Origin: a phage
Sequence record: OZ346221.1
DNA: 45,229 bases
Strand: one strand, 5' to 3'
This document shows, piece after piece, positions 5,225-43,263 of the stretch. The first letter of the stretch is position 1. Each line of letters opens with the position of its first letter. Made by a program: the position numbers and the translations under genes. Under the pieces are notes generated by a model. It saw only the letters and a program-made list of their open reading frames with translations. It was not told the DNA's origin and did no database searches.

Positions 5225-5262
5225 TCCTCGTTGTTGGTGTGCAACCAATATATGCAACCAAT
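5225..5262 (-). promoter_or_regulatory. sigma70-like promoter for the 4453..5217 gene, with tandem TGCAACCAAT motifs
   Basis: On the - strand: TTGCAA, 17-nt spacer, TATATT, then leader ATTGGTTGCACACCAAC...GAGGA; leader nearly identical to the one upstream of 40493 (approximate coordinates). Confidence 0.45.
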
Positions 5263-15994: not shown

Positions 15995-16602
15995 CCACAT
16001 TTAAATTATACGGCGTTTTAGGACGTCGATTCGGTAAAGTGCATAAGCTGGACTGCTTCACTCCGGGAGAGGGTATCACCGGCCTGTGCGTGAAGTTACC
16101 CGGCTTACAGGACTTTCTAATGTCGGCCCACCTGGACAATATGATGTTCAAGGTGCGCAAAGGCGACCACACGATGACCGGCTATGATGAGCTGGGCGAG
16201 TTCCACGGCAACCGCGTAGTTACCATCGCGCCGGTTATGACGGGCGCAAAAAGAGGGTTGGGACAATTGCTGGCGGGTGTCGCGATCGTTGTGGCGTCGT
16301 TCTATACGGGCGGATTTGCTACTGCCGCTTTCGGGGCTTCGGCTTCAACCGCTGCCGCTATCGGAACGGCGACGTTTTCGTTCGGGATGTCGATGGCGCT
16401 GGGTGGCGTTATGCAATTGCTGTCGCCACAACCGAAAGGATTGCAGACAAGGCAGGACGTGGATAACAAAGCGTCGTACGCGTTCGGCGGGCCAGTGAAC
16501 ACAACCGCGCAAGGCACGGCACTTGGTGTATTATGGGGCGAGCGTGAGATCGGCGGCGCTATTATTTCAGCCGGAATCGTAACCGAGGACTTGAACGAAT
16601 GA
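15985..16602 (+). CDS. tail assembly protein I-like
   Basis: 205 aa; Gly/Ala-rich hydrophobic C-terminal half; lies between K-like and J-like genes. Confidence 0.6.
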   Translation: MAMTTFKLYGVLGRRFGKVHKLDCFTPGEGITGLCVKLPGLQDFLMSAHLDNMMFKVRKGDHTMTGYDELGEFHGNRVVTIAPVMTGAKRGLGQLLAGVAIVVASFYTGGFATAAFGASASTAAAIGTATFSFGMSMALGGVMQLLSPQPKGLQTRQDVDNKASYAFGGPVNTTAQGTALGVLWGEREIGGAIISAGIVTEDLNE

Positions 16603-19600
16603 CGATTATCTACGACGTCACAGGGCATAAAGGCGGCGGCGGCAAACAGCACACCCCGCAGGAAACGCCGGATAGCCTGCATTCCCTGGCTAAAATCCGC
16701 ATCTTGCTCGCACTGGGAGAAGGTGAGTTCGAAAGTATTACCAGCGCCAGCGAATTGCGGCAGCGTGTATATCTGGACGGAACACCGATCCAGAACGCCG
16801 ATCTGTCTGAAAACTTCCCTGGCGCTCGTGTGGAGTTCCGCCCAGGAACACAGCACCAGGATGTGATCCACGGGTTTTCAGCGGTGGAAAGTGAGCAATC
16901 CGTAGGCGTAAAACTGGAAAACGGCACGCCGTGGGTGCGCCTGATTAACGACACCAGTCTTGACGCCGTGCGCATTCGAATCGGCATTCCGGCCCTGTAC
17001 ACAAACGAAGATAATGGCGACCTGGTGGGCGGGCGCATCGACTATAAGATCGTTGTGTATACGGATAACGCAGACCCGCGTGAGTTCAGATTCGCCGCCG
17101 TTGGTAAAACAATGTCGCTATATGAGCGCGACCACCGCATCGAATTACCGCCGAACGTGAATACTGGCTGGCGAGTGGAGGTGCACCGCATAACGGCAGA
17201 CTCCACATCGGCGAAAGTGGTTAATGATATCCGGGTGCAATCCATCACTGAGATTATCGACGCCCGCCTGCGATACCCGCTAACTGCGCTGTTGTTCGTG
17301 GAGTTCGACGCCAAAGCGTTCCAGAACATTCCGCGCGTGTCCATCAAGTGCAAAGGCCGCAAAGTGCTGGTCCCGAACAACTACGACCCGATTAATCATA
17401 CATATTCGGGCGACTGGGACGGCACGTTTAAACGCGCATGGACGGATAATCCTGCGTGGCACTGGTACGATATTTGTATTACTGAACGCTTCGGCCTAGG
17501 TCGCCGGATCAAACCGCAAATGCTGAACCGGTACGCGCTCTACCAGATTGCGCAGCGATGCGATCAGCTGGTTAGTGATGGCAACGGCGGGCGGGAAATC
17601 CGATTTAAGAATGATATGTACATTCAGTCGCAGACCGACGCCTGGACCGTGCTTAAGGATTTAGCCGCTATCTTTGCTGGTATGACCTGGTGGGGCAACC
17701 AGATGTTGAATATCGTAAGCGATCAGCCGGTCGCAGCGGTATCGCACACCATCACCAACGCCTCGGTAATTGATGGCCGATTCGACTACGCGTCCGGCAG
17801 CCAGAAAACTCGGTATTCCACATTCGCGGTAGCATACGGCAACCCGAAGAACCACTATGAAGACGCCATCGCAACGGGACAGCGTGTCGAACTGGTACGC
17901 CGCCATAAGATTAATCGTCTGGATATTACGGCGATCGGATGTACGCGTGAATCAGAAGCGCAACGACGTGGGCACTGGGCGCTAATCTCCAACCAGCTTG
18001 ACCAGCAAGTTAGCTTTAAGGTTGGCATGGAGGGACTTTTCTTTATTCCGGGTAGCGTAGTCGCGATCGCCGATACAAACATTTCTGGCGGCTTCGAGAC
18101 ACGCGGCGGTCGCCTGTTGTCAGATCCGGGCACTCGCACCGTGCTGAACACGGACTGCGAAATCACGTTCCGCCCTGGCGATAAGTTCCTTGTACGCACC
18201 GATAGCGGTAATGTGGAGACTCGCGAGATCGCCAGCGTCAACGGCAACAAGGTTACGCTAAAAACCGCACTGGACGCCGACCCTATTCCAGACCAGCCGT
18301 TTTGCGTTGATGGCAACGATATCCAGTTGCAGAAGTTCCGCATTACCGACCTGGAATATGACGACTCTACCAGCACTTTTTCAGTGCGCGGGATCGAGTA
18401 CAACGATAGCAAATATGATGCCGTCGATAATGGCGCTCGCCTTGACCCAGGCATCTTTACGCAAGTTCCTGACGGCGTAATGAAGGGGCCGGAGTCCGTG
18501 ACCATCACCCAGTCGCAGATTTCATCGCAAGGCCAGCTAATCACCAACGTGGATATTGTATTCCCGCCGGTGAAGGATGCCGTGGTGTATGAAATCCAGT
18601 GGCGACGTACCAGCTTACAGAATATGGAAATCCAGTGGGGTAACGACTGGGTGAACATTCCCCGCACGGCATCGAATGGCGCGCATATCCCAAACGTGTT
18701 TTCCGGTAACTATCAGGCACGCGTTCGCGCGATCGGTATGGGCGAGATTTCATCACCGTGGGTGTCGTCTGCCATCACGCCGATCGAAGGTCGTCTCGGC
18801 GGTCTTAACGCGCCTATCATTACGGCAGCAGTTTCCGGCCTTCACCAGATTTTGTGGAAGTGGAACCACAACAACGCCGCGACGGATATTTCGTACACCG
18901 AGCTTGAAGTGCGCAAGACCGGTGAAACGGAATGGAAGTTCTTAACCAACGTCCCATATCCTGGGTCGGAGTATGCGCAAACGTCGCTGGAGTTCGGCAT
19001 CTATCAGCAGTTGCGCGCCCGTGTAGCGGATAAAATCGGCAACCTGTCTGACTGGTCTGCCCCGTTTGAAGGGCAGGTGAGTGACAATGTTGACGAGTAT
19101 ATGAAGGGGCTTGATGACGAGTTCCTGACTTCCAAAGATGGTAAACGCTTCCAGGAAGCGATCGACACCATGCCGCAAGGCATTTATGAGGCGATGCTCA
19201 CCGACGCGCAGCAATTGTTCAACGCCCGCGCCGAGTACAAGGGCATTTATGCGGAAATCAAGGTGGCGTATAACGTGGCGGCGGACGCCCACAAGGCGGT
19301 AGCTCAACTGGAAACGTTGATCGGCACGCGACTTGACGATGCGGAAGCGGCGATCCACACGTTGCAGACAGCGCAAAGCACGCACGAGCAAGCCTTCGCC
19401 CAGTACCAGCAAACTGTTGCCGCTAAGTTTTCGGAACAGGAAGCTGCCATCCAGCAGGTACAAACAGCAACGGCAGACGTAGCGGGCGCGCTGGCGGAGT
19501 ACAAGACCCAGGTCGCGGCACAGTTCGGTCAGCAGTCCGCCGCTATCGAGCAGAAGATGACGTCCACGTTTAACCATGCCGGTGGCAACGCCACATACAG

Positions 19601-20018
19601 CCTTAAGGCGGGCGTGACGTATAACGGGACTTACTACGATGCCGGTATGCAGCTTTCAGTTGTTGCGGAAGGTGGCGCGGTTAAATCCCGCATCGCGTTC
19701 AAGGCGGACCAGTTCTACATCATGCACCCGTCTAATGGGTCGCTTTCGTCCGCGTTTATCGTTGACGGTGGTCAGGTGTACATCGACACCGCCCGCATCA
19801 AGAACGCGTCCATCAACTTCGCGCAGATCACAGACACGCTGCAATCGAATAACTACGACGGCAGCACGCGCGGATGGCGCTTAGGCAAAGACGGGACGTT
19901 TATCAACCTGGGTACTGGAAGCGGTGGTGGTACAAAGCAGACCAACACCAACTACAGCGTTAAAGACGCGAACGGTGTTTTACGCGTGCAAATTGGCGAG
20001 CTTACTGGTCGCTGGTAG
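16599..20018 (+). CDS. host specificity / central tail fibre protein (lambda J-like)
   Basis: 1139 aa, largest tail-tip ORF, follows the M/L/K/I-like genes, terminator downstream. Confidence 0.85.
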   Translation: MTIIYDVTGHKGGGGKQHTPQETPDSLHSLAKIRILLALGEGEFESITSASELRQRVYLDGTPIQNADLSENFPGARVEFRPGTQHQDVIHGFSAVESEQSVGVKLENGTPWVRLINDTSLDAVRIRIGIPALYTNEDNGDLVGGRIDYKIVVYTDNADPREFRFAAVGKTMSLYERDHRIELPPNVNTGWRVEVHRITADSTSAKVVNDIRVQSITEIIDARLRYPLTALLFVEFDAKAFQNIPRVSIKCKGRKVLVPNNYDPINHTYSGDWDGTFKRAWTDNPAWHWYDICITERFGLGRRIKPQMLNRYALYQIAQRCDQLVSDGNGGREIRFKNDMYIQSQTDAWTVLKDLAAIFAGMTWWGNQMLNIVSDQPVAAVSHTITNASVIDGRFDYASGSQKTRYSTFAVAYGNPKNHYEDAIATGQRVELVRRHKINRLDITAIGCTRESEAQRRGHWALISNQLDQQVSFKVGMEGLFFIPGSVVAIADTNISGGFETRGGRLLSDPGTRTVLNTDCEITFRPGDKFLVRTDSGNVETREIASVNGNKVTLKTALDADPIPDQPFCVDGNDIQLQKFRITDLEYDDSTSTFSVRGIEYNDSKYDAVDNGARLDPGIFTQVPDGVMKGPESVTITQSQISSQGQLITNVDIVFPPVKDAVVYEIQWRRTSLQNMEIQWGNDWVNIPRTASNGAHIPNVFSGNYQARVRAIGMGEISSPWVSSAITPIEGRLGGLNAPIITAAVSGLHQILWKWNHNNAATDISYTELEVRKTGETEWKFLTNVPYPGSEYAQTSLEFGIYQQLRARVADKIGNLSDWSAPFEGQVSDNVDEYMKGLDDEFLTSKDGKRFQEAIDTMPQGIYEAMLTDAQQLFNARAEYKGIYAEIKVAYNVAADAHKAVAQLETLIGTRLDDAEAAIHTLQTAQSTHEQAFAQYQQTVAAKFSEQEAAIQQVQTATADVAGALAEYKTQVAAQFGQQSAAIEQKMTSTFNHAGGNATYSLKAGVTYNGTYYDAGMQLSVVAEGGAVKSRIAFKADQFYIMHPSNGSLSSAFIVDGGQVYIDTARIKNASINFAQITDTLQSNNYDGSTRGWRLGKDGTFINLGTGSGGGTKQTNTNYSVKDANGVLRVQIGELTGRW

Positions 20019-20021
20019 TAT

Positions 20022-20041
20022 AGGGGCTTTGGCCCCTTTTT
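20022..20041 (+). terminator. intrinsic terminator after J-like gene
   Basis: GGGGC-TTTG-GCCCC hairpin followed by TTTTT (approximate coordinates). Confidence 0.6.
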
Positions 20042-20054
20042 AACGAGGTTATTT

Positions 20055-20357
20055 ATGGCATTCGGTATCGCAACGTGGGACGCGCAAGGACGCCCAAACA
20101 ACTACGGCATTAAACCGGTAAGCGTGATCGGAAGGATTCATCTTGCGGAAGGACAAAAATCAGGCGCGTGGTCGTTCCCAGTACCGGCGGGGATGAGGGT
20201 CGGATACGTGGTCGCACTGGATAAAGGCGCGGTCGGGCCAGGACGCAGAATAACCGCCAGCGGGAACACTATCACGGTTTCCGCGGCAAGTGCGGTAGGT
20301 GGCGGGGTTTACTCCGCATCTGAATGTGACGTTATTGTTTTTGTGGAGCGAGCTTAA
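20055..20357 (+). CDS. hypothetical protein downstream of J-like gene
   Basis: 100 aa ORF; ATGA overlap with the next gene. Confidence 0.45.
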   Translation: MAFGIATWDAQGRPNNYGIKPVSVIGRIHLAEGQKSGAWSFPVPAGMRVGYVVALDKGAVGPGRRITASGNTITVSAASAVGGGVYSASECDVIVFVERA

Positions 20358-21031
20358 TGGCTAATTACGGCGCGTTGATTGACTTACCAAACGGCAACCC
20401 GTTTATCACGCCAGAATCGACGCCGTTTTGTCTATTCCGCCGTGTGGTTGTTGGGTCTTCGGCTAACGGCACTGCGCAGTCGGCGGCTGCCGATATTAAT
20501 TTGGGCGGTGACTACCCTGCAATAGCGTTTGTGAAAACTACGCACACCGCCCAGCCGACCGTCGTAGGGTCTTCTCGCGTTGGTAATGTGGTGAAGGTGA
20601 GCGCCAGCAATCCATTCGGGCAAGGCTTCACTATGACGGCTTACATCTTTGCCATATTCCCACAGACCCTTCCGCGGTGGGGCTTCGCTATTTGGGGTAA
20701 GACGGGGAAGCTAGTGCTTACTAATGAGAGTCGCGTATTAAGCGATTTAGTTACCGTCGGATCTCCTGGCGCTAACGGGGGGATTAACATTGACCAGACG
20801 CTAAACGGCAGCTACGCCGTCGCACCGGGCATATTGGGGTCAACGCTGATCCGGTTTTTTGTGCAGGGCCAGCCGCAGGTAGTATCGGTAACGGCGTACA
20901 CGGGGGCCAGATTTGATGGGTCGCGAACGCGTATATCGGCAGCGTCGTCAGGGAACGCCACGGGGGATGTGGTGGGGTATACGAATAACGGCAACGCAAT
21001 CATGGCGATTAACACTGCCAACTACGACTGA
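20357..21031 (+). CDS. hypothetical protein, tail-fibre associated by position
   Basis: 224 aa, Gly/Ser/Thr/Asn-rich, between J-like and tail-fibre genes. Confidence 0.45.
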   Translation: MANYGALIDLPNGNPFITPESTPFCLFRRVVVGSSANGTAQSAAADINLGGDYPAIAFVKTTHTAQPTVVGSSRVGNVVKVSASNPFGQGFTMTAYIFAIFPQTLPRWGFAIWGKTGKLVLTNESRVLSDLVTVGSPGANGGINIDQTLNGSYAVAPGILGSTLIRFFVQGQPQVVSVTAYTGARFDGSRTRISAASSGNATGDVVGYTNNGNAIMAINTANYD

Positions 21032-21051
21032 GGAAAATCCCCTTTCGGGGA

Positions 21052-21270
21052 TTATTCGCAGGTGGTGTTTTTGAAATGGTCTACCGACACGTACTGGAAG
21101 CTAAACGGATAACCCGCCCTTAGCATTTTATGCCCGGAGAAGTCTGCGACACCATACACAGGGACCGCATAATCAATGCCGCTATTCTGGTATGTGGCGT
21201 CGCAGACTTTAGCGGGCATGTTGGCACAACCGGACAAAAGAACCGCACAAATCATAATTAAAGTTTTCAT
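21052..21270 (-). CDS. small reverse-strand lipoprotein, candidate receptor-blocking superinfection-exclusion protein (Cor/Llp-like by context)
   Basis: 72 aa from internal ATG; signal peptide MKTLIMICAVLLSGC with lipobox LSGC; RBS AGGGGA; only - strand gene in the tail module, divergent from the tail-fibre gene. Confidence 0.55.
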   Translation of the reverse strand: MKTLIMICAVLLSGCANMPAKVCDATYQNSGIDYAVPVYGVADFSGHKMLRAGYPFSFQYVSVDHFKNTTCE

Positions 21271-21350
21271 GGTATCATCCCCTATATTTGGTTGAGTTTT
21301 AGTATTACACCGCTCAACCTGGATTGCAACCAATTTACGAGGATTTAGCT

Positions 21351-22919
21351 ATGGCAGCGGGTACGCTATCCGTAACGAACAATAGCAAGGCGGTAGTAGG
21401 GGTCGGCACAACGTTTACCGCGTTTAAAGCTGGCGACTTCTTAACGCTGGTGGTAGGGCAAGTTCCTTACACCGTGGCGATCGCATCAATCAAAAGTAAC
21501 ACGGCGCTTACGCTGGTGCTGCCGTTCGACGGCCCGACGGCAACCGGCCTAGCCTGGGACGGCATCAAACGTGACACCATGTCATTGACTACGATGGGCG
21601 TTACCGTCCAGGCACAGAAAGCATTTCGTTTGATGATCGCCGATGAAAACAACTGGCGTGCAATCTTCGGCGACGCTGAAGAAATCACCGTAACGCTGCC
21701 GAACGGGCAAGTCATGCAGGGTATGTCATGGGGCTATCTGTCGCAGTTGATGAAACAGATCGACCCAGTGGAAATGCGCGACCTGCAACAACAAGCCGCC
21801 GCATCGGAAGCAGCCGCGCAAGGATTTCGCAATGAGGCAGAAGGCTTCAAGACCGAGACGGCGGGTATTCGCGACGCCACCAATACCATCAAGACGCAGA
21901 CGAACCAGATCAAAACTGATACGCAGGCCATCAAGACGCAGACGAACCAGATCAAGACGGATACGCAGGCCATCAAGACGCAGACGAACCAGATCAAGAC
22001 GGATACGCAGGCCATCAAGACGCAGACGAACCAGATCAAGACTGACACCGGCGTTATTCGAGATCAGGCCAATACAGCGAAGAGGGACGCGCAAGCCGCC
22101 CGCGATGCCGCGCAGGGGTATCGGGACGAAGCCGAAGACTTCAAAAACGCGATCGACCCTACGCAATTCATGAAGAAGTCGCAGAACCTGGCAGACGTCG
22201 CAGATAAATCGGCGGCACGCGCTAATCTTGGCGTTGGTGATGATAGTATCGTTAAACACGCAACATTACGTCTGAACGGAGGCGAATCGCTAACCTTCAA
22301 TGATGTCGAAAGAAACGGTTTGATTATATCAAACGCGTCTTTCGGGATGGATAGCTGGGTCGGGCAGACGATGCATAAGTGGTACACGGATTGGACACGA
22401 TCTGGCTTGGTCAGGGGCGGCGATGCCCACTTATCGGACTACCGTGTCCACGTGTGGAAGGATGGTTATACGGAGGCTTTATTCCGCTTCCTACCGGACG
22501 GCAGGCTGATTAGTGGTAACAGCAGCAACCCTTCGGTTAACGAGTTCCAGAAAGCGGCGCTATCGGACCGCGACCTTAAAAAAGAAATCCAATACACTGA
22601 CGGCGAGGAAAGCTACAACCGCGTTCGTCAATGGCTTCCGGCAATGTTCAAGTATAAGGAGTCTGACGTACAGCGATACGGCCTTATCGCACAGGATCTG
22701 GCAAGGATTGACCCAGAATATGTGCACTTGCTGCCGGGTTATGCCATTTATGAGGATATCAAGGGGGTGGACGAGGAAGGCAACGAAGTTGTAGTCGACC
22801 GAAAGGAAATCGGGTATACGGACGATGTGCTGTCACTAGATAGTAACGTGCTGTTGATGGATCTGTGTGCCGCCTTCGTTCACCTGTTGCGGAAAGTGGA
22901 AAAGCTGGAAGGTAAATAA
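21351..22919 (+). CDS. tail fibre protein with C-terminal S74-type intramolecular chaperone domain
   Basis: 522 aa from internal ATG with GAGGA RBS; C-terminal SDRDLKKEI...YGLIAQDL signature; 14-aa tandem repeats AIKTQTNQIKTDTQ in the shaft. Confidence 0.75.
   Translation: MAAGTLSVTNNSKAVVGVGTTFTAFKAGDFLTLVVGQVPYTVAIASIKSNTALTLVLPFDGPTATGLAWDGIKRDTMSLTTMGVTVQAQKAFRLMIADENNWRAIFGDAEEITVTLPNGQVMQGMSWGYLSQLMKQIDPVEMRDLQQQAAASEAAAQGFRNEAEGFKTETAGIRDATNTIKTQTNQIKTDTQAIKTQTNQIKTDTQAIKTQTNQIKTDTQAIKTQTNQIKTDTGVIRDQANTAKRDAQAARDAAQGYRDEAEDFKNAIDPTQFMKKSQNLADVADKSAARANLGVGDDSIVKHATLRLNGGESLTFNDVERNGLIISNASFGMDSWVGQTMHKWYTDWTRSGLVRGGDAHLSDYRVHVWKDGYTEALFRFLPDGRLISGNSSNPSVNEFQKAALSDRDLKKEIQYTDGEESYNRVRQWLPAMFKYKESDVQRYGLIAQDLARIDPEYVHLLPGYAIYEDIKGVDEEGNEVVVDRKEIGYTDDVLSLDSNVLLMDLCAAFVHLLRKVEKLEGK
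21885..22049 (+). repeat. 42-bp in-frame tandem repeat (about 3.9 units) inside the tail-fibre gene
   Basis: GCCATCAAGACGCAGACGAACCAGATCAAGACGGATACGCAG repeated; units 2 and 3 identical, units 1 and 4 slightly different. Confidence 0.8.
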
Positions 22920-22925
22920 GGAGAA

Positions 22926-22948
22926 GGGGCTGCGTGGCCCCCTTTTTA
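22926..22948. terminator. bidirectional intrinsic terminator between tail-fibre gene and the end of the leftward operon
   Basis: GGGGC-TGCGT-GGCCCC hairpin followed by CTTTTT (approximate coordinates). Confidence 0.6.
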
Positions 22949-23521
22949 GTTTGAGTTTTCCCAGTCCATTTTACGCCGTACCAACGGGCTTTCGTAATAT
23001 TCCTTTCCTTCCACTTCCACCAGGGGCCAGTCGTTCACAATCACGTATGGCTCCGCAATATCCTCAATAACGCCGCTGGCGCTATGCTGCCCGAACGACA
23101 CTCCCACCAGAATAACACCGGCAACTCGACGAGTGAGATACTCACGAGCGCAACGCGCCTCCACCAACCCCCGACGGATGCCGCTGGTGGCCTTAACCTC
23201 GTAGGTCCAGACGGCATCAATCATATGTTCGCGGAAGTCGGGACCGGATTTTACCTTGCGCTTGCCGACCATGATAATATCGCCGCGGTCGATAGTGTTA
23301 GCGCTAAACAGGCCGGTACGCATTAGCAAACCTTGCGGGATACAGCTACGCCCGCCCGCCTGCCCTTCGAGGTACATGCCTGCAAACATTTCGCCCAGCA
23401 CACCGACGAGTCTGCTTTGCTTGCACGCGTCAGACTTGTATCGCCACTGTTCAAACTCGATGCTTGCAATCATTGCCGCCAAGTGGAATTGTTTACCGGT
23501 TATTTCATATTCGCCGTACAT
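22946..23521 (-). CDS. hypothetical protein, possible PD-(D/E)xK-like nuclease fold
   Basis: 191 aa; D...EVK arrangement (DIIMVG...DAVWTYEVKAT) compatible with a PD-(D/E)xK core; weak call. Confidence 0.35.
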   Translation of the reverse strand: MYGEYEITGKQFHLAAMIASIEFEQWRYKSDACKQSRLVGVLGEMFAGMYLEGQAGGRSCIPQGLLMRTGLFSANTIDRGDIIMVGKRKVKSGPDFREHMIDAVWTYEVKATSGIRRGLVEARCAREYLTRRVAGVILVGVSFGQHSASGVIEDIAEPYVIVNDWPLVEVEGKEYYESPLVRRKMDWENSN

Positions 23522-24022: not shown

Positions 24023-24085
24023 TATGTGGTCCTTTTTATGGGAGGCCGTATTGCCCCCCGACGCGTTAACTATAATGCAACCAAC

Positions 24086-24556
24086 CTATTGGTTGCAAGT
24101 GAATTTTGCAACGTTTATTGCGTAAATTTTCGGGACCAAATCGCCGCACGCCCGACGAATTGCCGCGATGTTCTTCTCGCAGTCCTCAATGATGACAAGT
24201 TCAGACACGTCTGCATAGCAGACCATTTTGAACACAGCGCACGCCTTAAACTCTGGCGGCGGGGTGTCGTCCAGCATGTGGCGCATAAACAACCGGCCTG
24301 CCGGGAATACCTCCAGTTGCTCGGCGGTAGTCTCCCAGCATTCTAGCTGCCGGTTGGTCAGATACGCGATCTCGAAGCCTTGCTCTTTGTACATGCGCAA
24401 CAGCGGCAGCATATCCATGTTCAGGTCTTCGCGTACATGCGCTTTGTGCCACTTTGCCCAAAAGGTTGATTTCGTTTTTATCCCCGGCACCAGGTCGGCA
24501 CGCGCATCGCTTGAACCATTAATAACGCCATCCAAATCGCAAATCAGTAATTTCAT
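24086..24556 (-). CDS. HAD-superfamily hydrolase-like protein
   Basis: 156 aa beginning MKLLICDLDGVI, matching HAD motif I (DxDGV). Confidence 0.55.
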   Translation of the reverse strand: MKLLICDLDGVINGSSDARADLVPGIKTKSTFWAKWHKAHVREDLNMDMLPLLRMYKEQGFEIAYLTNRQLECWETTAEQLEVFPAGRLFMRHMLDDTPPPEFKACAVFKMVCYADVSELVIIEDCEKNIAAIRRACGDLVPKIYAINVAKFTCNQ

Positions 24557-25974: not shown

Positions 25975-26012
25975 GACACCCTCAATATAATGCAACCAAT
26001 ATGGTTATGCAA
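25975..26012 (-). promoter_or_regulatory. sigma70-like promoter with TGCAACCAAT motifs, for the 25686..25937 gene
   Basis: On the - strand: TTGCAT, 17-nt spacer, TATATT, followed by a hairpin plus T-run in the leader (approximate coordinates). Confidence 0.35.
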
Positions 26013-26017
26013 CCAAT

Positions 26018-35723: not shown

Positions 35724-35753
35724 ATAATAGATTGGTTGCAGGATAGGTGTCAA
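35724..35753 (-). promoter_or_regulatory. leftward early promoter candidate
   Basis: On the - strand: TTGACA, 18-nt spacer containing TGCAACCAAT, TATTAT; about 190-nt leader to the 35527 start (approximate coordinates). Confidence 0.45.
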
Positions 35754-36268: not shown

Positions 36269-38533
36269 ATGAGCTTAATTAAATTCGCTGTAACAAGACC
36301 CGCTAAAAAAGGCGAAAAAGCCAGGGCGGAAAACTTCCAGATGACAACTGATGAATTTTTCGAATTTATCAATGATGCGAAAGAAATATCATCAGTGCAT
36401 ATCAACAAGACCGAGGATAAAGCCGAGTATGCGCGCCGCAAGCGCAAGGCCGATGGCATCGTGGCATATACCAGTGACGGCCTACGCCGTAAGACCAGCG
36501 CGGTGGACCGCTCGATCCTGTTCTTTGATATCGACCGTACCGACACTCGCACCTTGCGCCGCTGCCGTAAGGCTTTCATCGATGCGGGGCTGGAGCACGT
36601 ATTCCATACAACAACCGGCGACCGCCACCCGCTGAAAGGCGGCACGCGTTGCGCACGTTTCCTTGTGCTCACAGACAAGCCCGTACCGGCGGAAGACCTG
36701 GGCCGCGTCCAGTACGCGCTGTTAGACCAACTGGGCCTGTCTGATGTGGACTTCGACGATTGCACCAAAGACACAAACCGCCTGATGTACCTACCACACC
36801 AGCAGTCTGTCATTAAGTGCCACTACGGAAAGCGCGCCAGTGTGCGTCGTCTGCTTCGCCGGGCTGACAGGCTGGGAGTGGAGAAAGAGGAAGTACGCCG
36901 CGAGCTTACCCAGGGCGACGACGCAGTGGCTGACGGCATTCTGGACTGGTGCTTCCAAGCAGGATTCGAGGAGTTATCCTCCGGTCGCGGTTATGAAGTG
37001 CCGTGCCCGAACGAACATCTGCACAGCGGCGAAGGGTCGACGGCTATTATAGTCAAGGATGGCGAGATCCGTTTCAAGTGTATGCACACCGGCAACGAGT
37101 GTTGCTCTGAGCTGAACAGACACCAGCACCTGGCGCTACGTCTTATCGGGATACCGGACCACCTGAACGTCGAGCCGCACAACATGTCACGTAAGCAAAT
37201 CGCCGCCATCCTCCCAGGGCTGGACGACGAGGAAGTCGAATCCTTATATGAACATATTGTTGATGCGGTTGGCGACGGCGAAGAATACGGCGTGTGCACC
37301 GATGCGGATCTGGATAACGAGCCGGTTGCGCTGTTCAGTAAGCACGACCCGATTATCGAGGGGTTGATTAACTTTAAATCGACCTGGTACATGGCGGGTG
37401 AGTCGAATATCGGTAAGTCTTTCTACGTGCTGGGCCAGATGGGCGCGGTTGCCGCGGGTATTCCGTTTGGTGGCGCGAAGGTCGTCCAGTCTCATTGCTT
37501 CTATTTCGACGCGGAAGGTGGCGAAGCCTCCAACCAGCGTAAAGAAGCATTGCAGATTAAATATGAGCACGACCTGGACAAGCTGCACATTATCGATCTG
37601 CAGTCACGCGGCTGGGATATCACCAGCAAATCGGGCTTGCGCGAAGTTATCAGCTTTATCAACCGCACCGCTAACGGCGAACCGGTTGGCCTGGTGGCGT
37701 TCGACTCACTAAACCAGACTGTTGCGTTGCGGTCCGCCGAGGCTAAACCGTTCGACGAGAACAACGCCAGCGATATGGGTGAAGTGGTCAAAGCGCTGAA
37801 GGCCATCGCGGAAAATACAGGTGGCAGTGCGGGCGTCATCCACCACCCGGCTAAAGGTGCAAACGGCAGCAGAACGCCACGCGGGTCCGGCGCGCTGCAT
37901 GGTGCTGTCGATTCTGCGTTCTTCCTGGAACAGCCGGACGACAACCAGCCCGGACAATTGAACCTGTATCACGAAAAGTCACGTAACGGCATCAAGCAAG
38001 CGCCGCGCGGCTTCGTCCTGCTCAAGTGCAAGGTGAAGGTGGATCTCCGCAAGTCAGAAGCGTTCGAGGCGCACCAGTCCACCAGCACCGGGCCAGACTT
38101 CGGCGACGTGGTTGCCGGATGGGACGTCAAGCCGATTGCCTCCACGCCACGCGACGAGACTCTCTACCTCGTACCGGTTGCCCTGGCACCGTTCGCTATT
38201 GAACAGGCGAAGGCGGCGGGCAAGGCCGCGGTTAAGGAAGAGAACACCGCCGGACCGCGCAACGAAAAAGAGAAAGTGCTTTATGCGGCACTGGAAAAAC
38301 TGATGGAAGATAACCCGTACCATACTGGATTCAGTAAATCGGCAATTGTCCGCCAGGCGGGACTCGCAAAAGGTGGCACTTCGACGAAGGCAATCGACGA
38401 TATGGTGGAGCGCGGGGTAATAGGTTTTTATACAGATCCGCACACCGGGGCCATCTATGGGTCTTCTAATTTGGTCATCAAATCGGATATCCCTATCACG
38501 CTTTCCGCGACCGATGACGATTTAAAAGATTAA
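36269..38533 (+). CDS. primase-helicase (zinc-binding primase-type N-terminal region, RecA-like ATPase, C-terminal winged-helix-like domain)
   Basis: 754 aa; Cys/His cluster CPNEHLHSGEG...CMHTGNECC; Walker A MAGESNIGKS; VAFDSLNQ; C-terminal GFSKSAIVRQAGL...AIDDMVERGVIGF. Confidence 0.75.
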   Translation: MSLIKFAVTRPAKKGEKARAENFQMTTDEFFEFINDAKEISSVHINKTEDKAEYARRKRKADGIVAYTSDGLRRKTSAVDRSILFFDIDRTDTRTLRRCRKAFIDAGLEHVFHTTTGDRHPLKGGTRCARFLVLTDKPVPAEDLGRVQYALLDQLGLSDVDFDDCTKDTNRLMYLPHQQSVIKCHYGKRASVRRLLRRADRLGVEKEEVRRELTQGDDAVADGILDWCFQAGFEELSSGRGYEVPCPNEHLHSGEGSTAIIVKDGEIRFKCMHTGNECCSELNRHQHLALRLIGIPDHLNVEPHNMSRKQIAAILPGLDDEEVESLYEHIVDAVGDGEEYGVCTDADLDNEPVALFSKHDPIIEGLINFKSTWYMAGESNIGKSFYVLGQMGAVAAGIPFGGAKVVQSHCFYFDAEGGEASNQRKEALQIKYEHDLDKLHIIDLQSRGWDITSKSGLREVISFINRTANGEPVGLVAFDSLNQTVALRSAEAKPFDENNASDMGEVVKALKAIAENTGGSAGVIHHPAKGANGSRTPRGSGALHGAVDSAFFLEQPDDNQPGQLNLYHEKSRNGIKQAPRGFVLLKCKVKVDLRKSEAFEAHQSTSTGPDFGDVVAGWDVKPIASTPRDETLYLVPVALAPFAIEQAKAAGKAAVKEENTAGPRNEKEKVLYAALEKLMEDNPYHTGFSKSAIVRQAGLAKGGTSTKAIDDMVERGVIGFYTDPHTGAIYGSSNLVIKSDIPITLSATDDDLKD

Positions 38534-38708
38534 ATTCTGCGCGCATTGGTTGCCGATATGGTAATTCCCATATCGGTGAATGATTAAATTTTGCGCGCAT
38601 TGGTTGCCATTTTGAGTGTTTTTACCTGGTCGTATTGGTTGCCGTGTAGTGTAAATATAGTGAATAGTTATGCAATAAAACTGCATAAAGTAAGCGGACA
38701 GAAAGCAC
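37229..38708 (+). repeat. tandem duplication unit, copy 1 (3' half of primase-helicase gene plus downstream non-coding DNA)
   Basis: Near-identical to 38709..40188 with scattered substitutions; unit about 1480 bp; junction next to GTAAGCGGACAGAAAGC (approximate coordinates). Confidence 0.8.
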
Positions 38709-40188
38709 GAGGAAGTCGAATCCTTATATGAACATATTGTTGATGCGGTTGGCGACGGCGAAGAATACGGCGTGTGCACCGATGCGGATCTGGATAACGA
38801 GCCGGTTGCGCTGTTCAGTAAGCACGACCCGATCATCGAGGGGTTGATTAACTTTAAATCGACCTGGTACATGGCGGGTGAGTCGAACATCGGTAAATCG
38901 TTCTACGTGCTGGGGCAGATGGGTGCGGTTGCCGCGGGTATCCCGTTTGGCGGTGCGAAGGTCGTCCAGTCCCATTGCTTCTATTTCGACGCGGAAGGTG
39001 GCGAAGCCTCCAACCAGCGTAAGGAAGCATTGCAGATCAAATACGAGCACGACCTGGACAAGCTGCACATTATTGACCTGCAATCACGCGGCTGGGATAT
39101 CACCAGCAAGTCGGGCTTGCGCGAAGTTATCAGCTTTATCAACCGCACCGCTAACGGCGAACCGGTTGGCCTGGTGGCGTTCGACTCACTCAACCAGACT
39201 GTTGCGCTGCGGTCCGCCGATGCTAAACCGTTCGACGAGAACAACGCCAGCGATATGGGCGAAGTGGTCAAGGCGCTGAAGGCCATTGCGGAAAATACAG
39301 GCGGCAGTGCGGGCGTCATCCACCACCCGGCTAAAGGTGCAAACGGCAGCAGAACGCCTCGCGGGTCCGGCGCGCTTCATGGTGCTGTCGATTCCGCGTT
39401 CTTCCTGGAACAACCGGACGACAACCAGCCCGGACAATTGAACCTGTATCACGAAAAGGCGCGTAACGGCATCAAGCAAGCGCCGCGCGGATTCGTCCTG
39501 CTTAAGTGCAAAGTTAAGGTAGATCTCCGCAAGTCCGAAGCGTTCGAAGCCCACCAGTCCACCAGCGCCGGGCCAGACTTCGGCGATGTGGTTGCCGGTT
39601 GGGACGTCAAGCCGATCGCATCCACGCCACGCGACGAGACTCTTTACCTCGTACCGGTCGCCCTGGCACCGTTCGCCATCGAACAGGCGAAGGCCGCTGG
39701 CAAAGCCGCAGTTAAGGAAGAAAACGCCGCCGTACCGCGCAACGAAAAAGAGAAAGTGCTTTATGCGGCACTGGAAAAACTGATGGAAGATAACCCGGAC
39801 CATACCGGATTCAGTAAATCGGCAATTGTCCGCCAGGCTGGGCTTGCGAAAGGTGGCACATCGACGAAGGCAATCGACGATATGGTCGAGCGCGGCGTGC
39901 TCGGTTTTTATACCGATCCGCACACCGGGGCCATCTACGGGTCGTCGAATATTGTCATTAAAACGAGTATACCCATCACGCTTTCTGCGACCGATGATGA
40001 TTTAAAAGATTAAATGTTGCGCGCATTGGTTGCCATTTCGAGTGTTTTTAGCTGGTCGCATTGGTTGCCGTGTAGTGTAAATATATTGAATAGTTATGCA
40101 ATAAAACTGCATAAACTAAGCGGGACAAAAAGCGGGACAAACAAGGGGCGGGACAAAGCGGGACAGCACCCCGTCCCGCCCCCGGATG
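38709..40188 (+). repeat. tandem duplication unit, copy 2
   Basis: Second copy of the 3' half of the primase-helicase gene, followed by the complete iteron element (approximate coordinates). Confidence 0.8.
38772..40013 (+). CDS. stand-alone paralogue of the primase-helicase C-terminal half (ATPase plus winged-helix-like domain)
   Basis: 413-aa ORF with GTG start and no obvious RBS; about ten amino-acid differences from the parent, most nucleotide differences synonymous; may be an untranslated remnant. Confidence 0.45.
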   Translation: MCTDADLDNEPVALFSKHDPIIEGLINFKSTWYMAGESNIGKSFYVLGQMGAVAAGIPFGGAKVVQSHCFYFDAEGGEASNQRKEALQIKYEHDLDKLHIIDLQSRGWDITSKSGLREVISFINRTANGEPVGLVAFDSLNQTVALRSADAKPFDENNASDMGEVVKALKAIAENTGGSAGVIHHPAKGANGSRTPRGSGALHGAVDSAFFLEQPDDNQPGQLNLYHEKARNGIKQAPRGFVLLKCKVKVDLRKSEAFEAHQSTSAGPDFGDVVAGWDVKPIASTPRDETLYLVPVALAPFAIEQAKAAGKAAVKEENAAVPRNEKEKVLYAALEKLMEDNPDHTGFSKSAIVRQAGLAKGGTSTKAIDDMVERGVLGFYTDPHTGAIYGSSNIVIKTSIPITLSATDDDLKD

Positions 40189-40276: not shown

Positions 40277-40435
40277 CATAAAATCCTGGATTGCAAAATA
40301 CACGGCAGCATGTTGCGGATTGCGGTCGTCGCGGAACTAGGCAACCAATGCGGGTTGTATTATGTTGAGTGAAAAATGCGGTTTGCAGTCTCAGCAGATA
40401 GCGATCAACTTTTTCATGCGCGTGATTAATATTGG

Positions 40436-40464
40436 TTGCATCCGGCCTGGCACCTTGCTATATT
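40436..40464 (+). promoter_or_regulatory. sigma70-like promoter with ATTGGTTGCA motifs, for the 40493 gene
   Basis: TTGCAT, 17-nt spacer, TATATT, then leader GGTTGCACACCAACATGAGGA before the ATG (approximate coordinates). Confidence 0.45.
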
Positions 40465-40492
40465 GGTTGCACACCAACATGAGGACTGAACA

Positions 40493-40807: not shown

Positions 40808-41077
40808 ATGAGCCGTAGGCGCGCCAAACAGCTTTCGTGGCATATTCCCCTGCATTGCATACGAATATGGGCTGAGAATGCGGTTGAGGGTGAATCTGTA
40901 TTCTGGTGCTATCGCGACGACGTAAAGCCGTTGACGCAGACTCGCTACTTGCACCAGTTCGCAGCACAACACGATTTCAGGGTGCGGACCTCCTTGCAAC
41001 CAATGGGGATCCGTATTACATTACGCCGGAAGCCCGCCGTTGAGCGGGTAGGCAAACACTGGAGACTGAGCAAATGA
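40808..41077 (+). CDS. hypothetical protein
   Basis: 89 aa ORF closely following the previous gene. Confidence 0.45.
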   Translation: MSRRRAKQLSWHIPLHCIRIWAENAVEGESVFWCYRDDVKPLTQTRYLHQFAAQHDFRVRTSLQPMGIRITLRRKPAVERVGKHWRLSK

Positions 41078-43203: not shown

Positions 43204-43233
43204 TTGACTTGCAACCAACATAGACGCCATACT
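43204..43233 (+). promoter_or_regulatory. promoter candidate with TGCAACCAA motif in the spacer
   Basis: TTGACT, 18-nt spacer beginning TGCAACCAAC, CATACT, then AAGAGGAG RBS (approximate coordinates). Confidence 0.4.
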
Positions 43234-43263
43234 GCGACCAATCAACAAGAGGAGTATTACACT

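Follow-up and report, generated by a model that had tools for sequence, protein, structure and literature searches.

A Cor-family superinfection-exclusion lipoprotein gene, probably directed against FhuA, in the tail module of a virulent Dhillonvirus

The window analysed here, a whole stretch of 45,229 nucleotides of phage DNA (sequence record OZ346221.1), carries on its minus strand, at 21052-21270, a gene that very likely encodes the Cor-family superinfection-exclusion lipoprotein of a virulent Dhillonvirus, a protein that would block the receptor FhuA. The feature itself is already known: Cor is a named family, it is annotated in RefSeq Dhillonvirus genomes, and the cassette to which it belongs has been described in the literature. 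An earlier note on this DNA, made from its letters, had proposed that the gene specifies a receptor-masking superinfection-exclusion lipoprotein of the cor/llp kind, and this proposal is supported by homology to Cor, by a shared cassette, and by a model fold that resembles that of Llp.

The cor gene and its product

Re-reading of the minus strand finds the 72-codon reading frame at the coordinates given in the earlier note, with its ATG at 21270 and its stop codon at 21052-21054. The product consists of a signal peptide, MKTLIMICAVLLSGC, and a mature part, ANMPAKVCDATYQNSGIDYAVPVYGVADFSGHKMLRAGYPFSFQYVSVDHFKNTTCE (full-length sequence, MKTLIMICAVLLSGCANMPAKVCDATYQNSGIDYAVPVYGVADFSGHKMLRAGYPFSFQYVSVDHFKNTTCE), the latter having 58 residues and a mass of ~6.4 kDa. 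The ATG at 21270 is taken as the right start because a Shine-Dalgarno sequence, AGGGGA (21278..21283, minus strand, by direct reading), lies 7 nt upstream of it and because the homologues of T1, phi80, N15, and HK022 begin at the equivalent Met. (A 93-aa version that starts at TTG 21333 in a mechanical ORF list was rejected; its extra part is conserved intergenic DNA, and the homologues all begin at the Met of MK....) The Shine-Dalgarno of the relatives is AGGAGA, a single substitution at 21280, where the plus strand has C in the window and T in Envy and JLBYU60. The gene is considered real, and not a chance ORF, because its differences from relatives concentrate at third codon positions (1/1/7 at codon positions 1/2/3 in comparison with phage Envy and 7/3/14 with JLBYU60) and because 245 phage records contain the protein by tblastn. 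Its description as the sole minus-strand gene of the tail module is true against the annotation of JLBYU60 and Envy; the head module of JLBYU60 has two other minus-strand genes, gp07 and gp08.

The sequence had first been thought, by eye, not to be recognisably similar to Cor, and this is refuted by profile and pairwise searches. PHROG 1119, "Cor superinfection exclusion protein", matches the 72-aa protein end to end (E 7e-26), and the NCBIfam equivalog NF047972, "phage exclusion lipoprotein Cor", covers residues 2-72 with 55.7 bits (E 3.7e-15), where the curated (trusted) cutoff is 31 bits. By tblastn the protein has 45.2% identity to T1 Cor (9e-14), 41.6% to phi80 cor (1e-8), 40.5% to N15 gene 24 (4e-8), and 39.7% to HK022 cor (5e-7), each of these matches spanning 97-100% of the query. 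Closer relatives are numerous: 77 tblastn records have at least 60% identity, all but two of them at least 80%, and many are annotated as Cor or as a superinfection-exclusion protein. RefSeq Envy gp20 is among the relatives' genes annotated as Cor, and the relatives' copies are 80-96% identical. Pfam gives no match for the protein or for its two upstream neighbours. A single-sequence homologue search yielded just 6 near-identical proteins, a low number that is due to the word index; a profile search built with the Cor proteins of T1, phi80, N15, and HK022 gave 266 matches, many of them named "phage exclusion lipoprotein Cor".

The product has the marks of a lipoprotein. A signal peptide (residues 1-14) followed by a predicted lipid-modified Cys15 is encoded at 21226..21270 (minus strand), and the lipobox L-S-G-C lies within this region at 21226-21237 (minus strand). 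Direct reading of the N-terminus, MKTLIMICAVLLSG followed by Cys, against PROSITE PS51257 finds K2, uncharged hydrophobic residues at 5-10, L-L-S-G at 11-14, and Cys15, in agreement with the rule. The LSGC lipobox and two further cysteines in the mature part had been noticed before, and the reading gives exactly that: Cys15, then C23 and C71 (C9 and C57 in mature numbering). The mature protein starts Cys-Ala; residue +2 is thus Ala and not Asp, and by the E. coli +2 rule sorting to the outer membrane is therefore predicted. In an alignment of the window's protein with those of Envy, T1, phi80, N15, and HK022 and with six database homologues that are 75-90% identical to it, L12, G14, C15, C23, the stretch R51-A-G-Y-P-F56, and C71 are invariant. 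Across 64 diverse homologues, the three Cys (lipid Cys included) together with G39 and P41 (mature numbering) are invariant.

Small size, an outer-membrane location, and periplasmic Cys are likewise properties of o-spanins, the outer-membrane lipoprotein subunits that act in lysis, and the gene might on that account be read as a lysis gene with no exclusion role. The probability of this we regard as negligible. The lysis cassette is distant (in JLBYU60 the holins and lysozyme are about 20 kb away, and a spanin, gp06, is annotated elsewhere), no i-spanin partner is adjacent to or embedded in cor, and homology is strong to Cor, with none to a spanin family. The model fold, moreover, matches Llp.

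That model, an AlphaFold2 prediction for the mature part from the 64-sequence alignment, is all-beta with a mean pLDDT of 86. In the structure comparison with Llp that the earlier note had recommended, Llp has the best two-sided TM-scores by Foldseek (0.61, 0.58), but with a non-significant E of 0.076, and small barrels of the Tudor/chromo type rank alongside it; a small barrel of this kind is a common fold. The model nonetheless agrees with the description of the Llp fold, since it is a small beta-barrel and its Cys9 and Cys57 match the disulphide pair that ties the termini of Llp (Cys11-Cys58; PMC9586334). By analogy, a C23-C71 disulphide probably clamps the mature Cor domain. In BFVD, the top match is a Dhillonvirus Cor (TM 0.95), and the next come from DT571/2, slur09, PSTCR5, and Stubb (lipoproteins or small proteins); these phages we take to be T5-like. 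When the Cor profile is compared with the PDB, the best match is again Llp (8a60_B, E 0.01), over residues 1-43, mostly signal peptide. That Cor and Llp share a fold has already been concluded from predicted models (10.64898/2026.03.26.714494; PMC13164509).

Transcription signals and a repeated intergenic motif

A putative σ70 promoter of cor can be read at 21301..21329 (minus strand). It has a -35 sequence, TTGCAA (21329-21324), a 17-nt spacer that ends in TGT, and a -10 sequence, AATACT (21306-21301). This is our own reading and lies below the threshold of the scan tool, which called no acceptable promoter on the minus strand upstream of cor. (The scan's sole minus-strand call, at 21278-21251, was rejected, as it overlaps the cor start codon.) The stretch is kept in Envy and JLBYU60 save one or two spacer positions, and the counterpart upstream of T1 cor is TTGCAA-17-TACAAT.

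At the other end of the gene, a G+C-rich hairpin, AATCCCC-TTTC-GGGGATT (21036..21053), lies between cor and the convergent gene for a 224-aa protein. Its fold energy is -14.8 kcal/mol (z -2.27). The hairpin of Envy and JLBYU60 reads AAGCCCC...GGGGCTT; the change is compensatory and leaves the stem intact, and T1 has an equivalent hairpin at the junction of its cor and its 224-aa-like gene. A terminator scan did not call the hairpin at 21036-21053, because its T-run is short; it is retained as a terminator because of the folding energy and the compensatory change. It is likely the terminator of cor, and it possibly terminates in both directions. With its own putative promoter and a likely hairpin terminator, cor may form a transcription unit of its own, served by host polymerase; because it runs against the late tail operon, it might be expressed independently of late transcription.

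These signals bear on the possibility that the gene is a non-functional remnant of Cor, a moron from temperate ancestors that excludes nothing. Cor has been characterised mainly in prophages, a literature search found no exclusion test of any Dhillonvirus Cor, and the putative promoter is a weak match to the consensus. Against this, the frame is intact, and conservation extends to the Shine-Dalgarno (with one substitution), the putative promoter hexamers, and the stem of the terminator; the substitutions are biased to third codon positions, and all of the family-invariant residues are kept. Furthermore, cor is retained in dozens of Dhillonvirus and T1-like genomes, and for T1 Cor an early action in the lytic cycle has been reported (PMC13164509). 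We therefore consider a remnant most improbable, and a working exclusion gene remains the preferred reading.

The lateral tail-fibre gene (ATG 21351) is divergent from cor across an 80-bp spacer, and a repeated motif lies between the two, as the earlier note had it. This motif, the 10-mer TGCAACCAAT, is found by motif search at 21325..21334 on the plus strand, where it overlaps the putative cor -35 and lies 6 nt upstream of the fibre Shine-Dalgarno. In the window there are 12 exact sites, and 20 sites when up to one mismatch is allowed, versus 3.1 expected; none of 100 shuffles reached 20. Sites are located at 5240-5262, 21325-21334, 24076-24097, 25991-26017, 35731-35740, 40431-40471, 40995-41004, and 43210-43242. 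Those that were compared with the gene map are intergenic, and the motif is often paired. One perfect palindrome, TGCAACCAAC-CT-ATTGGTTGCA, is present at 24076-24097, a variant, GGCAACCAAT, is found at 38545-38643 and 40025-40069, and the minus-strand copy at 35740 sits between TTGACA and TATTAT. Conservation of the motif extends to Envy and to JLBYU60, the latter with 9 exact copies. Searching the literature for it returned unrelated primer sequences alone.

Judged from its sequence and placement, TGCAACCAAT looks like the operator of a phage regulator or a promoter element. (A fixed promoter element was not established, as the position and orientation of the motif relative to gene starts vary between sites.) One may speculate that in virulent FhuA-dependent siphoviruses (Dhillonvirus, T1-like) the inverted cor is read early by host RNA polymerase, and that in Dhillonvirus, where the -35 region of cor overlaps a copy of TGCAACCAAT, a phage regulator that binds this motif turns receptor masking on or off in time, together with the other divergent promoters; we put this forward tentatively, as an idea that is rather doubtful.

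The FhuA-type cassette and a proposed mode of exclusion

By megablast of positions 20000-23000, the window belongs to the genus Dhillonvirus, with SM_S22 as the best match (91.7% over the full length). Members of this genus are virulent siphoviruses that infect E. coli and measure about 44-46 kb. The gene order of the window is colinear with that of JLBYU60. Upstream of cor, all on the plus strand, are a gene for a lambda J-like tail-tip protein of 1139 aa (16599..20018; Pfam FNIII-A_GpJ, Phage_Tail_Tip, and Phage-tail_3) and the two genes of the FhuA-type cassette downstream of J: one for a 100-aa homologue of phi80/N15 gp22 (20055..20357; PHROG 557 and synteny) and one for the 224-aa homologue of phi80/N15 gp23 (20357..21031; PHROG 425). 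Beyond cor lies the plus-strand gene for the lateral tail fibre (21351..22919), a 522-aa protein with a C-terminal Peptidase_S74 chaperone domain, whose start agrees with the JLBYU60 annotation. The window, Envy, JLBYU60, T1, phi80, N15, and HK022 all have J, the 100-aa gene, the 224-aa gene, cor, and the side fibre in this order.

Several features of this region are recorded as observations in their own right. In the tail-fibre protein, a 14-residue unit, TQTNQIKTDTQAIK, occurs four times in tandem within what is predicted to be a coiled coil (roughly 21900-22070). The protein is far shorter than that of Envy (522 vs 805 aa), and its gene departs from those of relatives after about the first 770 nt (about 22117 in the window; ~2118 of the 20000-23000 query). 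Some records with the Dhillonvirus/T1-like region carry Campylobacter, Acinetobacter, or Sodalis phage labels; these are probably E. coli phages that are mislabelled or present as contaminants.

Elsewhere in the window there is a tandem duplication of about 1.48 kb (37227-38706 and 38707-40133). The duplicated segment comprises the last 1.33 kb of a primase/helicase gene (36269-38533) and the downstream spacer, and the two copies are 93-94% identical. A second ORF that arises from it, 38772-40013, corresponds to the C-terminal 413 aa of the 754-aa primase/helicase protein. The segment is single-copy in ten distinct Dhillonvirus genomes among the matches listed (e.g. SECphi18, PTXU06, StarDew, and PaulFeyerabend). 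Because the copies have diverged by 6%, the duplication points to recombination between two relatives or to mis-assembly of a mixed population, rather than to a fresh duplication.

The link between the cassette and a receptor comes from work on related phages. A requirement for FhuA has been shown experimentally for JLBYU37, JLBYU60, and Teewinot (PMC10373560). In small siphoviruses, including Dhillonvirus, receptor-specific loci are found downstream of gpJ together with cognate exclusion genes, and the allele present is reported to agree with the receptor used in every case (PMC8594841, the BASEL study). A Cor cassette, consisting of Cor and the two upstream genes, has been described in Drexlerviridae and Dhillonvirus phages, all of them FhuA users (PMC13164509, 2026). 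The two upstream genes have been taken as receptor-binding proteins in one study (PMC8594841) and as possibly exclusion-related in another (PMC13164509); by eye, neither the 100-aa nor the 224-aa protein has a signal peptide or hydrophobic segment. The 224-aa protein of the window is 99.1% identical to that of JLBYU37 and JLBYU60, 96.9% to that of Teewinot, 56.7% to phi80 gp23, and 51.7% to its T1 counterpart. Because of this cassette identity with the FhuA-dependent JLBYU37 and JLBYU60, we infer that FhuA is probably the receptor of the window's phage. As a separate observation, the 224-aa protein occurs within Dhillonvirus as two alleles (at least 96.9% vs about 52% identity), while Cor remains at least 80% identical.

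It could be argued that a lipoprotein of the Cor/Llp type at this locus is directed not at FhuA but at another outer-membrane receptor, for instance BtuB, LptD, LamB, or YncD. Cor-like proteins are found in BtuB-using phages (PMC13164509), Rtp45 blocks LptDE (PMC12685063), and Dhillonviruses use FhuA, LptD, or LamB according to the cassette that they carry (PMC8594841). The window's protein, however, groups with the FhuA-associated Cor of T1, phi80, N15, and HK022 and passes the Cor equivalog, the adjoining 224-aa gene has 99% identity to its counterpart in phages with a proven need for FhuA, and the reported agreement between locus alleles and receptor use allows for no exceptions. A target other than FhuA is thus unlikely.

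With FhuA as the target, exclusion could proceed as follows. After export, the precursor would receive its lipid on Cys15 and be cut by signal peptidase II, and the lipidated Cor would, by analogy with Llp, be anchored in the inner leaflet of the outer membrane. Its 58-residue mature domain, predicted to be a small SH3-like beta-barrel with a probable C23-C71 disulphide, would bind the phage's own terminal receptor, FhuA, the TonB-dependent ferrichrome transporter. Situated on the periplasmic face of FhuA, Cor may shift the plug and the extracellular loops, in analogy with T5 Llp (PMC9586334), and FhuA-dependent phages (the window's phage, T1, T5, and phi80) would then be unable to adsorb irreversibly or to inject their DNA. 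A virulent phage might benefit in two ways: superinfection would be blocked during the latent period, and progeny would not be wasted on receptors in the debris of lysed cells. This twofold benefit is proposed because of established knowledge for Llp and the discussion in PMC13164509.

In this scheme, we infer the FhuA target, periplasmic binding, the allosteric mechanism, the disulphide, and the promoter and timing in the window's phage. Cor proteins are said, in work cited within 10.64898/2026.03.26.714494, to inactivate FhuA functionally; the same source states that the molecular mechanism of Cor is unresolved. An AlphaFold3 model of T1-like Cor in a complex of this kind has been reported (PMC13164509). 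In practical terms, the gene predicts FhuA as the terminal receptor of the phage, and from it one would also expect cross-exclusion with phages of the T1, T5, and phi80 types, a point of relevance to the design of phage cocktails.

Relation to known exclusion lipoproteins

Among known systems, Rtp45 of the small siphovirus Rtp (PDB 9RPS) is likewise a small lipoprotein whose gene occupies this locus downstream of J, and it blocks its own phage's receptor from the periplasmic side, as is proposed here for Cor. Its target, LptDE, differs from that of Cor, and it has no meaningful sequence match to Cor (9rps_D, E 8.2). T5 Llp (PDB 8A60, 7QJF) is about 22% identical to the window's Cor in the structural alignment with the model, with a marginal sequence-profile similarity (E 0.01). 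The neighbour of Llp is the gene for the receptor-binding protein pb5, whereas cor is next to the J/gp22/gp23 set; that Cor occupies the same periplasmic site on FhuA as Llp is a prediction in the literature.

The closest likeness is to the Cor proteins of T1, phi80, N15, HK022, and mEp167 (NF047972, PHROG 1119), to which the window's protein has full-length homology with 40-45% identity. They share with it the lipobox, the two mature Cys, and the RAGYPF motif, and their genes have the same place after J/gp22/gp23 and before the side tail fibre, as well as an association with FhuA-dependent phages. The lambdoid Cor proteins are about 5 residues longer, a difference that is due to a deletion after the lipobox in the window's protein. 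The orientation of the gene also differs: in the temperate phages phi80, N15, and HK022, cor is co-oriented with the tail genes, whereas the window and T1 have it on the other strand. Because its phage is virulent, the window's Cor would act in lytic growth and not from a prophage. The gene arrangement resembles that of T1, whose cor is likewise inverted and convergent on a gp23-like gene across a shared hairpin.
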